A stretch of 64,000 nucleotides of DNA, taken from positions 4,800,001 to 4,864,000 of the forward strand of contig OZ241917.1 of the NCBI GenBank assembly GCA_965203805.1, given 5' to 3'. A model generated the notes under the pieces. It had not been told where the DNA came from. It saw nothing but the letters and a program-made list of their open reading frames with translations, and did not search any database. Shown here in pieces: positions 1,847 to 39,471 of the stretch. The number at the start of each line of letters is the position of its first letter. The stretch's first letter is position 1. Source of the stretch: Candidatus Latescibacterota bacterium (GTDB taxonomy: Bacteria; Latescibacterota; UBA2968; GCA-2709665). The translations under genes were made by a program, and so were the position numbers.

Positions 1847-4800
1847 TCAGGACTTCTGGGATACCCAGGCGCGCCGTTCTCCCAGAAACGCGCCAATCTC
1901 CGAGAACAACGCGTCAGACGGCGACACGGTAAGCGCCCGGGATCGAATGACCTTTGTTTCTCCGTTGCCCAGTTCAAGGTGCAGATACACCGTGCACCCG
2001 CCCCGGTGACCCATCAGCAACGTCTTCAGCTGTTCCAGCGGCTCCGGGTCCAGCATCTCGGCTGGGAGTTTTACGTTCAGTGTGTCCGCAAGCGTCTCCC
2101 TCGCGTGCTCCATCGCCAGAACCTCTTCCACGACCAGCGACTGTCGCCCATTGCGTCCGGAAAGCCTGCCCTGTACCACCACCATCGCGTCGGCGACAAA
2201 CGCAGCCTTGACTTTTTCAAATGCATCGGGAAACACCACCAGATCCATGGCGCCATCGAGGTCCTCAATGGTGCCGAACGCCATCGGACGTCCGTTTCGA
2301 TCGGTATGCGATCTCGTTTCGGAAATCAGCCCCCCGAGTTTCACATCCGCACCCTCCGGCAATTCACCGGCATCCTGCGACGAACGGATGCCCAGCGCAA
2401 TCAGATCCGTGAGGTACCTTTCCAAAGGGTGCCCGGAGAGATAGAATCCAAGCATGTCCTTTTCGTGCGCGAGCCGCTCGGGCTCCGTCCACTCCGGCTC
2501 ATCGGGAAGTACATGGTTGTTGATTACTGCCGTCTGGTCCGCGAGGACTTCCATATCGAAGAGTGAAATCTGACGTCGCTGCCGCGCTGCCTGCGCGGAC
2601 TGGCCCGCGTCCAGAGCCCGGTCGAGACCCTCCAGGAGTTGCGCCCGATGCCCCGAAAGACAATCCATCGCTCCGGCCCGGATCAGGCTCTCGATGGCGC
2701 GGCGGTTTACCGCGCGCAAGTCCACGCGTTCACAGAACTCGAACAGGGAATGAAACGGTCCGTCGGTTTCACGCGCACCCACAATGGCCTCGACCGCACC
2801 GCGGCCCACGTTTCGTACGGCCGCCATCCCCATCCGAATCGCCGTTTCCGAAGCCACAAAGTCCACGTAGGAAGTGTTCACATCGGGCGGCAGGACCTCC
2901 AGCTTCATCCTCCGGCATTCTTCAATCACGACCACCATTCGTTCGATGTTGCCGATCTCGCCATTCAGGCTGGCAGCCATGTATTCCTGAGGATAATTCG
3001 CCTTGAGGAAGGCGTTCCGGTACGCCACAACCGCATATGCCGCGGCGTGTGCTTTAGGAAAGGCGTACCCGGCGAACACTTCGATATTGGCGAAGATTTT
3101 TTGCGCCAGTTTCCGGTCCACCCCGTGTGAATCGCATCCCCCGATGAACGCGTCTTTCTGTCGCGCCATCTCCTCGGGTTTCTTTTTGCCCATCGCATCG
3201 CGCAGGATATCGGCCTGCCCGAGACTGAACCCGGCCAGGACCTGCACACTCTGCATTACCTGTTCCTGGTAGACCATGATTCCATAGGTTTCTTTCAGGA
3301 TGGGTTCCAGCTTCGGATGGTCGTAGGCCACCTCTTGCTTCCCGTGCTTGCGCGCGATGAAATTCGGAATGTGTTGCATCGGCCCCGGGCGATAGAGCGC
3401 ATTCATGGCGATGATGTCATCGATACAGTCGGGCTTCAGCTGCACGAGGTATTCCCGCATTCCCGGGCTTTCGAACTGAAACACGCCCACGGTGTCGCCG
3501 CGACCGAACAGGTCAAGGGTTTTTCTGTCGTCTTCGGGAATTTTCTCAAGGTCGAATTCCGGCTCTTTCGTCCTGATCAGGTCCACAGTCTCGTCCGCAA
3601 GCGAAAGCTCCTTAAGGCCCAGAAAATCCATCTTCAGAAGCCCGATATCCTCGCAGGTCGGTCCGTCGAACTGGGTGGTCACCTTGCCGTCTCTAGGGGA
3701 CTTGTAAAGCGGCACGAACTTCGTCAGATCATCGGGTGCGATAATTACGGCCGCCGCGTGTACCGAAGCGTGACGCGCCAGTCCCTCCAGGGCCCGCGCG
3801 TGCCGGATCAACTGCGCCTCTCCGCCGCCGCCGTCGGCCATTTCCTTGAGTTCGGGCACCTGTTGTATCGCCTTGTCCAGTGTCATTTTCAGATCGTTGG
3901 GCACCAGCTTGGCGATACGATCGACCTCACCAAACGGCATATCGTGAACGCGGCCCACGTCGCGGATTGCCGCCTTCGCTTTCAATGTACCGAACGTGAT
4001 AATCTGGCAGACGTTGTTTTCTCCGTATTTTTCCGACACGTACCTGATCACCTGGTCGCGTTTCTTGTCGGAAAAATCGATATCGATATCCGGCAGACTC
4101 AGACGCTTCGGGTTCAGGAACCGCTCGAACAGCAGGTTGTATTTCATCGGATCCAGGTCGGTTATGCGCAGTGAATACGCCACCAGGCTACCGGCGCAGG
4201 AACCCCGCCCGGGCCCCACCGAGATTCCGTGTTCCTTCGCGTATTTGACATAGTCCCATACGATCAGGAAGTATCCGGCCAAGCCCATTTCCACGATAAG
4301 GTCAAGTTCGAATTCCAGGCGGTTCCGGAACTCCTGCGGCACGGAATCGAACCGACTGTGCAGGCCCTGCCGCGCCAGATGTTTGAGGTATTCGTCCGCC
4401 GTGGGGAATTTCGCGGGCAGCGGAAATTCCGGTGCGAGGTAATTCCCGAACGCGAATTCTATATTGCACTTCTCCGCGATCTCGAGAGTCCGCTCGAGCG
4501 CATGCGGCAGGTCCGAAAACAGCGAGTACATCTCGTCCGCTGTCTTGAAATAGACGTTTGTCGGATAACACATCCTGCCGGGGTCCTTCAGCGTCTTGCC
4601 AGTCTGTAGCGCCACGAGAACGGCGTGGGCCTCATGATCGTCGGCTCCCAGAAAATGGGAGTCGTTCGTCGCCACGAGCGGAACCCCCATTTCCGAGTGA
4701 ATCCGAATCAGCCCTTCGTTTATACGGGGCTCCCTGTCGATGCCGTGCCGCTGAATCTCCAGGTAGTAATCTTCGCCGAAAATATCCAGGTATTCTTCCA

Positions 4801-37313: not shown

Positions 37314-37500
37314 GCGTCATGAACCAAGCGTCCTGTCCCAAAAATACCTCACCATTCTTCCGACGATACATCCCGTCTCGCTGCGTACCTCCCGCTCGCC
37401 GACCCTACCCATGTCGCCTGCTGGCGGACAAAACGCCTTTGGATCTAACCTACTGGGGGACAAGGGCTATATCTCTTCCATCATCTTTCATTTTCTCTTC

Positions 37501-37523
37501 GTCCTTTTTCTTGCACGCCCAAG
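37501..37523 (+). repeat. Left half of the palindromic repeat interrupted by IS110
   Basis: GTCCTTTTTCTTGCACGCCCAAG joined to 39142-39149 restores the hairpin GTCCTTTTTCTTG-CACGCC-CAAGGAAAGGAC. Confidence 0.75.
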
Positions 37524-37597
37524 AAAACGTCGTTGGCGCGCTTGGCGCCACTTGCGGTGGCAGGAACTGTGAGCAGAGCGTATCTTTGTCTTAGCGA

Positions 37598-37739
37598 CCG
37601 GGAGTCGAGGCCGTGTTCTAATTGGTGGATGATACCCCGTAAGAAAACGTGGTCCAGGGATCTGTGCGGACTTGAGATTGGTGACACCCTTGGGTGATCC
37701 CGTTTAGGAAAGTGATGTGACCGCCATCCCCCCTCCCGG
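37598..37739 (-). ncRNA. Putative IS110 bridge RNA, antisense to the recombinase
   Basis: Enclosed by a CCGGGAG/CTCCCGG 7-bp stem; carries guide-like matches to target (37706-37712, 37671-37676) and donor (37642-37650, 37618-37621), each pair separated by a hairpin. Confidence 0.7.
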
Positions 37740-37762
37740 AAACCCATAAGGAGGAGGACACC

Positions 37763-39133
37763 ATGGTTGGCAAAGGTACCCCCAGGAAGTCTCGGAAGCC
37801 AAAGGGTTTGTCCACGGTGCATACGCGTGCTGCCGGTGTTGACGTTGGATCCCGGTTTCACGTTGTTGCCGTGCCTGAGGATTTGTGTGCAGAACCCGTA
37901 CAAACGTATCAGAGTTTTACCGGCGACCTACACCGGTTAGGGGATTGGCTGGAGGCGGTTGGCATCACGACGGTGGCGATGGAATCGACCGGTATCTATT
38001 GGATTCCGCTATTTGAAATCCTCGAAGCCCGTGGCCTGGAAGTGTTATTGGTCAACGCAAGGGATGTGAAGCAGGTACCGGGTCGCAAAACCGACGTCAA
38101 CGATGCGCAGTGGCTCCAGCAGTTGCATCAATACGGGCTGTTGCGTGGTAGTTTTCGTCCAGCGCAAGAGGTGGCCACGTTGCGTGCGTATCTGCGTCAC
38201 CGTGAGGGATTGGTTTCCTATGCGGCCGCCCACATTCAACACATGCAGAAGGCGCTGATGCAGATGAACCTTCAGTTGCACCACGTGCTTTCTGACATTA
38301 CCGGTGTGACGGGTATGGCCATTATGCGGGCGATCGTGGCCGGCAACCACGACCCGCGCCAGTTGGCGAGTATGCGGGATAGACGCTGCAAAGCGCCGAT
38401 CGAAACCGTGGAAGCCGCCTTGACGGGACACTATCAGCCAGAGCACTTGTTTGCCCTGCGTCAGGCCATTGAGTTATATGATATCTACCAGGCCAAAATG
38501 GCCGAGTGTGACAAGGCCATTGAGGCTGCCTTGGCACGCCTGCATCCGGCCGAAGCGGTGTTGCCTGACAGTTCCACCCGGCCCAAGCCACGCCGTCGGA
38601 AGCCGAAGACCAACCAGCCTGGATTTGACATCCACACGGCCATGGTCACGCTGTTGGGCACGGATCTGACCCAGATCCACGGATTTGCACCCTATACGGT
38701 CTTGCGACTGGTCGGCGAGTGCGGCACCGATATGAGCCGGTGGCCCACAGCGAAGCATTTTACCTCGTGGCTCACGCTGTGTCCCGGCAGCAAGATCTCG
38801 GGGGGCAAGCTGCTTTGTTCCAGGACGCGGCGTTCGAACAATCGGGCAGCCACGGTCTTTCGCATGGCAGCGCTCAACGTCGGTAAGACCTCCACGGCCC
38901 TGGGCGCTTTCTATCGACGCTTGGCCGCACGCGCGGGCAGAGCCAAGGCCATCACCGCCACGGCACGTAAACTCGCCGTGTTGTTTTACAACACGTTACG
39001 TTATGGAATCGATTATTGCGATCCGGGCGTCGACGCTTACGAAACGCAACACCGCCAACGAATGCTCAACGGCCTGCGCCGACGCGCGAAAGCACTGGGG
39101 TACGACATCTCATTGGCTGCTTCCCCAACGTAG
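37763..39133 (+). CDS. IS110-family DEDD recombinase/transposase
   Basis: RuvC-like GVDVG, MESTG and KTDVND residues; Tnp-domain Ser in CPGSKISGGK; ATARKLA; GGAGGAGG RBS. Confidence 0.95.
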   Translation: MVGKGTPRKSRKPKGLSTVHTRAAGVDVGSRFHVVAVPEDLCAEPVQTYQSFTGDLHRLGDWLEAVGITTVAMESTGIYWIPLFEILEARGLEVLLVNARDVKQVPGRKTDVNDAQWLQQLHQYGLLRGSFRPAQEVATLRAYLRHREGLVSYAAAHIQHMQKALMQMNLQLHHVLSDITGVTGMAIMRAIVAGNHDPRQLASMRDRRCKAPIETVEAALTGHYQPEHLFALRQAIELYDIYQAKMAECDKAIEAALARLHPAEAVLPDSSTRPKPRRRKPKTNQPGFDIHTAMVTLLGTDLTQIHGFAPYTVLRLVGECGTDMSRWPTAKHFTSWLTLCPGSKISGGKLLCSRTRRSNNRAATVFRMAALNVGKTSTALGAFYRRLAARAGRAKAITATARKLAVLFYNTLRYGIDYCDPGVDAYETQHRQRMLNGLRRRAKALGYDISLAASPT

Positions 39134-39162
39134 TTCCTTAGGAAAGGACCAAAAAGAACGGC

Positions 39163-39243
39163 GCCTGCCTGCCGAGCAGGCTTCGGCGCAGGCAGGCCGC
39201 TCGGCGCCTGTCTGCGTGCGTGAGACAGCACGCACAGGCAGGC
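39163..39243. repeat. Two CCTGYCTGC...CAGGCAGG short palindromes
   Basis: 39163-39197 GCCTGCCTGC...GCAGGCAGGC and 39206-39243 GCCTGTCTGCGTGC...GCACGCACAGGCAGGC. Confidence 0.75.
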
Positions 39244-39471
39244 GGGGCCGGTTTTTCCGTGAACTACCTCAGTGGCGCCAATGGAAATTGGATGCCCTTT
39301 CACCGAAACCGCCCATCCCGAACGATGTTGCTGGACGGAGTAGCACGGAAAAACCCCTCCCTTCACCACCTTGCGGAAAGAAGGTCGTCCGGGGAGTTCT
39401 TCCTGGCGGATTCACGTGGGTCCGCCGTTTGTCTTTTGTCCTTGATTTAAGCCGACAGCTTTCGTCTGATC

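Follow-up and report, generated by a model that had tools for sequence, protein, structure and literature searches.

A predicted sense-strand bridge RNA in the left end of an IS110-family element inserted in a host hairpin repeat of a Latescibacterota genome

The element, its boundaries and its core

The 64,000-nucleotide stretch analysed here (the window; positions 4,800,001 to 4,864,000, forward strand, of contig OZ241917.1 in assembly GCA_965203805.1 of a Candidatus Latescibacterota bacterium) carries an insertion sequence (IS) of the IS110 family, which sits in a repetitive extragenic palindromic (REP)-like hairpin repeat of its host. The element comprises positions 37528-39142 together with one AA (37526-37527) and measures 1617 bp, or 1615 bp for the body without the AA. 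Its recombinase gene is preceded by about 235 non-coding bases (37528-37762) and followed by only 9 bases after the stop codon. Judging by comparison with relatives, a bridge RNA is very probably encoded in the long left end, in the same orientation as the recombinase gene. The original prediction for this locus had recognised the element and a readable two-loop guide RNA at 37598-37739 with short segments matching the junctions, both of which are borne out, and had placed this RNA antisense to the recombinase gene, which is not. The main features of the locus are the following.

37400-37525, plus strand: left flank, multi-copy REP-like host repeat, with the left target CCCAAGAA
37526-37527, plus strand: left copy of the AA core, placed by empty copies of the repeat and a joint seen in two public runs
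37528-39142, plus strand: element body, 1615 bp, single copy
37528-37536, plus strand: left-end CGTCGTTGG, imperfect subterminal inverted repeat, 7/9 with 39125-39133
37558-37586, plus strand: promoter-like TGGCAG-N17-TATCTT, with the -10 box TATCTT at 37581-37586, 10 nt before the start of the RNA model
37597-37740, plus strand: predicted bridge RNA, a closing stem (P1) and two stem-loops with internal loops; the ends are those of the model
37748-37757, plus strand: Shine-Dalgarno-like AAGGAGGAGG preceding the recombinase start codon
37763-39133, plus strand: recombinase gene, 456 amino acids, DEDD RuvC-like and Tnp domains
39134-39142, plus strand: right end TTCCTTAGG, 9 bp after the stop codon
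39143-39144, plus strand: right copy of the AA core, placed by the same empty copies and joint
39145-39300, plus strand: right flank, with the right target AGGACC..., the remaining host repeat and G+C-rich hairpins

The recombinase matches PF01548 (E = 1.3e-19, residues 24-168) and PF02371 (E = 3.8e-11, residues 302-384), which confirms its assignment to the IS110 family, and GGAGG-like motifs stand at the same place before the gene in its relatives. A phmmer search returned no PDB chain at E <= 0.01 and hence no solved structure for this protein, while protein sources name the family only "transposase" or "IS110 family transposase" and give no ISfinder name. In the 5.87-Mb genome, which is a single contig, the element has one copy: there is a single full-length DNA match, one match to the recombinase family and one to the bridge RNA.

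The left flank holds the left arm and the loop of a hairpin, GTCCTTTTTCTTG-N6-CAAGAAAAAGGAC. This hairpin, followed by G+C-rich hairpins and a T-run, characterises a host repeat family with at least 12 other copies in the genome, one of them at G000:C1:2607833-2608101; BLAST matches number 75 for its right part and 17 for its left part. Twelve of these other copies extend as far as the insertion point; every one is empty and reads ...CGCCCAAGAAAAAGGACC... / ...GTCCTTTTTCTTGTACGCCCAAGAAAAAGGACCAAAAAGAACGG. In the occupied site, the left junction is cccaagaaaa^CGTCG... and the right junction ...CCTTAGG^aaaggacc (the caret marks the point of joining). There are thus five A's at the site in the empty copies as against four (left) plus three (right) in the occupied one, which gives a two-base AA overlap, and the agreement of all 12 empty copies places the end of the left flank at 37527 and the resumption of the right flank at 39143. 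In contigs of two public runs, a joint leads from 37525 to 39143, skipping 1617 bases with 2 ambiguous bases. Since its sides are only 20-23 bases long, it stems from repeat copies rather than from an empty allele of this locus. Contigs of four public runs yielded no empty allele of this very locus, only such short repeat-copy joints.

The junction strings quoted in the original prediction, cccaag^aaaacgtcg (about 37518-37532) and ccttag^gaaaggacc (about 39136-39149), are indeed present. The junctions and the AG/CT core read from them are off by 2-4 bases, as the empty copies give AA in 12 of 12 cases and boundaries (37525 to 39143) other than those proposed. An AG core predicts a target cccaAGgaaagg that occurs in none of the 12 empty copies, and the left junctions of the relatives lack AG. 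The target given in the original prediction, tcctttcCTtggg, is not seen either and would require a substitution and an indel relative to all 12 copies.

Relatives of the element were collected by protein-guided scans (80 loci from genomes and 80 from metagenomes, designated by L and a number). They are 61-75 % identical and come from many phyla; in a word-indexed protein search, 8000 of 8000 scored candidates had E <= 1e-30. The right end TTTCTTAGG is found in 132 of 150 relatives' loci, and AA directly follows TTAGG at 145 of 150 right junctions; the left end starts with C after an A-run. The paralogous empty copies of L070 have AAAA where the occupied site has three plus three, giving the same two-A donor junction, and the IS3 orfA flanks of L065 and L022 are both in frame only with two A's in the donor junction. 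A first pattern search for empty IS3 sites in 5 genomes gave none. AA after TTAGG is the only placement of the predicted core that fits the window's empty copies, those of L070 and the IS3 orfA reading frames. As expected of an IS110-family element, there are no terminal inverted repeats and no long target duplication, and a short core, AA, is present at both junctions and in the empty site. The subterminal inverted repeat is weak throughout the family (mean 2.9/7 at the best register).

Other cores were considered. A GG or GC core lying just before the A's was first suggested by the right junctions of L052 and L056 and then rejected, and a TG core for L040 met the same fate. L052 and L056, two copies in one genome, end in TTAGC^CCGG instead of TTAGG^AA, and their left flanks end in ...GGGC and ...TAGC, respectively. 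Such ends hint at a crossover elsewhere or at off-target recombination.

Structure and strand of the bridge RNA

The 5' region of the element is strongly conserved across the relatives. A hidden Markov model of the bridge RNA built from this region gave a near-full match in plus orientation in 154 of 161 loci and in minus orientation in none; the 153 loci extracted for alignment represent 123 distinct sequences. The alignment reveals, in the long non-coding end, a conserved and covarying structured RNA with two internal loops: the closing stem P1 encloses stem-loop 1, made of P2, an internal loop and the hairpin P3, and stem-loop 2, made of P4, an internal loop and the hairpin P5. Its parts in the window are listed below.

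37598-37604, plus strand: 5' strand of P1, pairing with 37733-37739; 694 Watson-Crick, 71 G-U and 37 A-C among 7 pairs x 123 sequences
37609-37613, plus strand: 5' strand of P2, GGCCG, pairing with 37650-37654 (UGGUC)
37615-37619, plus strand: right target guide GUUCU, 5' side of loop 1
37640-37648, plus strand: left target guide UAAGAAAA, 3' side of loop 1 (UAAGAAAAC); the guide proper is 37640-37647
37657-37669, plus strand: 5' strand of P4, pairing with 37721-37730; outer stem of the donor loop
37670-37679, plus strand: 5' side of loop 2, ACUUGAGAUU, located where the right donor guide would be expected; no partner was found for it
37703-37710, plus strand: left donor guide UUUAGGAA, 3' side of loop 2, equal to CTTAGG plus AA (39136-39144)

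Over the five helices (35 pairs in 123 sequences), 3696 combinations are Watson-Crick, 369 G-U, 66 A-C and 167 other, and RNAalifold reports compensatory changes in 17 of the 29 pairs that it predicts. The closing stem, CCGGGAG (37598-37604) with CTCCCGG (37733-37739), had already been pointed out in the original prediction, and it covaries: pair 37601/37736 is GC in 75 of the 123 distinct relatives, AU in 31, GU in 9 and AC in 5. P4 shows 1093 Watson-Crick, 60 G-U and 15 A-C combinations, its pair 37660/37727 being AU in 61 and GC in 56 sequences. Rfam contains no relevant family (best match E = 4.3), and single-sequence folding of the left end is uninformative on either strand (z = +1.07 for plus, +0.70 for minus). 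The two inner hairpins (37624-37638 and 37680-37701) both start with UGGUGA... and end with ...GAUCCCG or AUACCCCG; by eye, these ends resemble the tandem G-A pairs of kink-turn-like motifs.

Either strand could form a helix of this kind; what tells them apart is that a G-U pair on one becomes an A-C mismatch on the other. Read as plus-strand RNA, G-U exceeds A-C in every variable helix (71 vs 37 in P1, 60 vs 15 in P4, 26 vs 7 in P5 and 211 vs 2 in P2). Pair 37610/37653 is GU in 83 sequences, GC in 20, AU in 18 and UU in 2 and never AC; on the minus strand it would therefore be mismatched in two thirds of the family. For 62 of the 123 sequences, the RNAalifold consensus reaches -31.19 kcal/mol with 29 pairs, including P2, on the plus strand, as against -22.1 kcal/mol with 23 pairs and P2 lost on the minus strand. 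The guides described below lean the same way: mismatches of the left guide are wobble-compatible in 41 cases on the plus strand vs 22 on the minus strand, and the right-guide pairs comprise 59 G-U vs 39 A-C.

The promoter signals are equally asymmetric. On the plus strand, 106 of 121 distinct relatives have a TANNNT box at a distance of 3-18 nt upstream of the RNA (11.8 +/- 3.2 in shuffled sequences). On the minus strand, 9 of 121 have one, which is below the shuffled value (19.6 +/- 4.0). The plus-strand TGGCAG-N17-TATCTT had been noted before as a weak promoter whose transcript might regulate an antisense guide RNA. Its -10 box is conserved as counted above, and it is best read as something else: TATCTT is probably the -10 box of an internal promoter of the bridge RNA itself. 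Structure, promoter and guide pairing, which in an antisense subtype should all be better on the strand opposite to the gene, all favour the plus strand here. The comparison of relatives thus argues strongly for a bridge RNA read in the same direction as the recombinase.

Guides, targets and relatives

Loop 1 varies with the flanks of the relatives whereas the 3' side of loop 2 is invariant and equals the right end plus AA; loop 1 is therefore assigned to the target and loop 2 to the donor. In the window, UAAGAAAA agrees with the left flank and the AA core (37520-37527) except for U instead of C at the first position. Comparison of the 3' side of loop 1 with the left junction gives 9/9 in L070, L138/L033 and L040, 8/9 in the window, L046 and L053, and 7/9 in L039, L130 and L176. 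Over 101 distinct pairs of guide and junction, the mean agreement is 7.76/9, vs 6.98 +/- 0.09 (maximum 7.26) when the guides are dealt to other elements. The short guide on the other side of the loop, GUUCU, is complementary to the five bases that follow the AA core (AGGAC in the window, with one U-G pair); its mean pairing is 3.42/5 vs 2.91 +/- 0.07 after shuffling, and none of 2000 shuffles attains the observed value (100 distinct pairs). Mutual information shows diagonals between RNA positions 45-48 and left-flank positions 10-13 and between RNA position 21 and right-flank position 5, the latter two being complementary in a fraction of 0.68. One and the same loop hence contains two segments that covary with the left and the right target flank.

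In loop 2, UUUAGGAA matches the left half of the joined element ends, i.e. the right end and AA, again with U for C at the first position, and is invariant in relatives with other targets; no match to the right half was found. The repetition of these short words in the window is not a matter of chance. The 64 kb contain two copies of AAGAAAACGT, one at the left junction (37521-37530) and the other in loop 1 (37641-37650); the expected number is 0.09, and 1 of 100 shuffles attains two. Of TTAGGAAAG there are three copies: one in loop 2 (37704-37712), one at the right junction (39138-39146) and one elsewhere, at 3054. Here the expected number is 0.15, and none of 100 shuffles attains three.

The segments singled out in the original prediction exist as quoted (AGGAAAGTG at 37706-37714, CTTGAG at 37671-37676, AGAAAACGT at 37642-37650 and CTAA at 37618-37621), and it is their roles that have to be revised. 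The complement of the presumed donor guide ACGUUUUCU follows the left flank in at least nine target classes and thus belongs to the target guide. Conversely, the complement of the presumed target guide CACUUUCCU is invariant across relatives with other targets, where it corresponds to the conserved right end TTAGG plus AA, and the presumed right target guide CUCAAG falls within a segment common to relatives with unrelated targets (CTTGAGAT in L021 and L029). Covariation of guides with flanks is consequently found in the loop-1 segment and absent from the segment first taken as the target guide. What made the minus strand look canonical is that the two sides within each loop are exchanged relative to IS621.

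The bases just beyond the core deserve a separate mention. In the left target guide, this base (C, 37648; RNA position 52) is the first base of the element, and in the left donor guide (37711; RNA position 115) it covaries with the first base of the flank (G is matched by G in 7 of 10 cases and A by A in 100 of 117). As each of these bases matches the other partner, the long guides fit the integrated junctions best. The bases resemble handshake bases but stand beside the left guides.

Most relatives are inserted in the A-run between an HTH_Tnp_1 open reading frame (orfA) and an HTH_21/rve open reading frame in the -1 frame (orfB) of IS3-family elements. The two halves of a split element lie, for example, at L065:959-1258 and 2839-3738 and at L022:972-1271 and 2896-3795. 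This A-run is presumably the programmed frameshift site of the IS3-family elements. Judged by these sites, one insertion sequence family specialises in splitting another, and the window copy appears retargeted to the hairpin repeat of its host while most relatives aim at the IS3 A-run. A copy of the element about 97.7 % identical to that of the window (38 differences in 1637 bases) is present in runs of another organism, and at least one contig of this copy runs into a different left flank; the element therefore is, or was, mobile between sites or hosts. L195 (NZ_CP117476.1 122076-123416), a 61 %-identical relative, is found on Citrobacter and Enterobacter plasmids beside IS66-family genes, which extends the family to well-studied enterobacteria.

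Proposed mechanism, rival readings and comparison with known systems

What these sequences show directly are the boundaries of the element, a structure common to the family, guides that covary with the flanks, and a bias between the strands. On this basis, a mechanism can be proposed in which transcription, RNA ends, circle and chemistry are modelled on IS621 and ISEc21. The left end would encode a sense bridge RNA (about 37597-37740), probably transcribed from an internal promoter with the -10 box TATCTT. Loop 1 would read the target through UAAGAAAA, which has the sequence of the left flank plus AA and would thus pair with the bottom strand, and loop 2 would read the joined ends of the element through UUUAGGAA, which repeats the right end TTAGG followed by AA. 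The recombinase would then exchange strands at the AA core between the circle (...CCTTAGG-AA-CGTCG...) and the target (...CCCAAGAA-AA-AGGACC...). This explanation as a whole has, in our judgement, a high probability.

Several points weigh against it. The case for the sense strand is a comparative one, and the strand bias is moderate in some helices (71 vs 37 in P1) and modest for the right-guide wobbles (59 vs 39). A generic sigma-70 scan does not list the plus-strand promoter; what it does list is the minus-strand match TGGACC-16-TATCAT (37656 to 37629), which lies inside the structure and whose transcript would start downstream of both long guides. The pairing of the right target guide is imperfect across the family (3.42/5), and a right donor guide was not found: mutual information between the RNA columns and both element ends yields no diagonal, 37670-37679 neither pairs nor covaries with the 20 nt at the start of the left end, and in a scan of all 5-mers from RNA positions 60-84 and 106-125, pairing with left-end positions 1-20 is poor (2.1-2.8/5). 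The order of guides within the loops reverses that of IS621 and ISEc21, as the top-strand guide comes 5' and the long bottom-strand guide 3'. Finally, the circle junction of the window element, proposed as CCTTAGG-AA-CGTCG, is unseen, this being a single copy, and tandem head-to-tail relatives in three genomes have the junction TTAGG-AAA-C (L049:2840-2860; L079 and L080 about 2830-2845; L088:2870-2890), with one A more than the inferred donor junction. The empty copies of L040 (7 found) exceed by one base the length expected with AA, unless the core in the target is AC.

A functional bridge RNA read from the minus strand (37739 to 37598), antisense to the recombinase, with a target loop followed by a donor loop, 9-nt left guides and a CT core, would define a new subtype of programmable recombinase, and it is highly improbable. 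Its stems can form on that strand, where RNAalifold still gives -22.1 kcal/mol, and the sigma-70-like match at 37656 to 37629 has the right orientation. However, all 12 empty copies contradict a CT/AG core and AG is absent from the left junctions of the relatives, the loop assignment on which it was built is inverted, pair 37610/37653 would be A-C in 83 of 123 sequences with P2 lost while G-U outnumbers A-C in the variable helices, and a -10-like box on the minus side is under-represented (9 of 121 vs 19.6 expected). The 37656 to 37629 promoter would moreover start transcription inside the RNA, past both long guides. The claim that IS621 geometry appears on the minus strand only does not hold with an AA core either, which would leave the 5' ends of the minus-strand guides facing the crossover. 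The available text of the publications retrieved on IS110 bridge RNAs and antisense, and on diverse bridge recombinases, contains no description of an antisense bridge RNA. The practical consequence of this outcome is to spare a bench test on the wrong strand.

In other IS families, transposases are commonly under antisense control, and the antisense RNA-OUT regulates IS10. Transcription of both strands, a sense guide being accompanied by a minus-strand transcript that regulates the bridge RNA or recombinase translation, therefore has to be weighed as well and is considered unlikely. The same minus-strand sigma-70-like match speaks for it (1 site vs 0.3 expected in shuffles), but this match overlaps bases conserved for structure, namely the 3' strand of P2 and the loop-1 hairpin, and is indistinguishable from them. 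Remotest of the readings considered is that the structure is not a guide RNA at all, but a 5'-untranslated region or DNA element for translation control or protein binding, its matches being mere conserved ends. The match of loop 2 to the right end, being invariant, is by itself no proof of pairing, and the missing right donor guide would fit such an element. Nevertheless, in independent target classes loop 1 follows both flanks in the way that base pairing predicts, wobbles included, and such guide RNAs have been demonstrated experimentally in the same protein family (PMC11208160, PMC11187229). The sense-strand bridge RNA with loop 1 as target loop and loop 2 as donor loop is thus the reading compared below with known systems.

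In IS621, the target loop precedes the donor loop and the guides end 3' at the core (PMC11208160), and the handshake bases sit beside the right guides (PMC11208158). The window element shares with it the DEDD plus Tnp recombinase, a sense-strand RNA in a long left end, the succession of target and donor loop, two guides ending 3' at a two-base core, one guide that reproduces left flank and core and another that is complementary to the right flank, and insertion into a repetitive palindromic element. It differs in its recombinase (456 amino acids, without a phmmer match to solved chains) and in its core, AA instead of CT, and neither Rfam nor the recombinase sequence reveals any IS621-type similarity. 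Within loop 1, the right guide (37615-37619) precedes the left one (37640-37647), which is not the IS621 order. Furthermore, the window RNA has a stem P1 that closes both stem-loops, its right donor guide is unrecognised, its promoter is apparently internal whereas that of IS621 is built across the circle junction, and the bases of its long guides that match the other partner follow the core, as opposed to the IS621 handshake beside the right guides.

The order of the two target matches is instead that of the IS1111 family (ISEc11, ISPa11, ISKpn4; PMC11187229), in whose seekRNAs the top-strand match lies 5' of the bottom-strand match, ISEc21 having the opposite order. This top-strand-first order is present in the window RNA. 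As to subterminal inverted repeats, which measure 7-17 bp in IS1111 elements, the window copy has a weak one (7/9) and the family mean is 2.9/7. On the other hand, the non-coding region of IS1111 elements lies downstream of the gene and that of the window upstream, with a right end of only 9 bp, and the recombinase has 456 amino acids vs 330-350. ISEc21 (PMC11187229) has an upstream non-coding region as well, and it too targets IS3-family transposase genes, as the relatives of the window element do. Yet ISEc21 targets DDE codons and the relatives the A-run that separates orfA from orfB. ISEc21 also has its bottom-strand match 5', where the window element has it 3', and the ISEc21 transposase has 358 amino acids. 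In length and in the upstream position of the non-coding region, the window element resembles the long-transposase subgroup around IS110 (395-455 amino acids; PMC11187229), a likeness rather than a placement in a tree; relatives of the window recombinase at about 33 % identity occur on Streptomyces plasmids. No description of the guide order in this subgroup was found in the texts consulted.

Bridge RNA structures are known to vary widely (PMC11208160; 10.64898/2026.10.21.760802). It is conceivable, if rather doubtful, that the family uses a not-yet-described architecture combining four features: a left-end RNA with the IS1111 guide order, a closing stem, no paired right donor guide and a handshake beside the left guides. 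The IS1111 order in a left-end RNA would then amount to a circular permutation of the IS621 loop. If this holds, the long guides would fit the integrated junctions better than the substrates (in the window, the left guide agrees with its left junction over 10 bases), which could bias the reaction forward or serve excision. The within-loop order is a possible new variant, and Fig. 6d and Extended Data Fig. 10c of PMC11208160 as well as Fig. S12 of 10.64898/2026.10.21.760802 may already depict this architecture.

Taken together, the window element is a fairly ordinary IS110 element of a known type with an unusual guide order inside its loops. It offers a natural bridge system with clear boundaries, an AA core and a target loop that can be read, and its large family (153 loci aligned) allows guide changes to be read against known targets. 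Compared with IS621, it indicates that the order of guides within a loop can depart from that model even though the RNA lies upstream of the recombinase, which matters wherever guides are predicted from position only.

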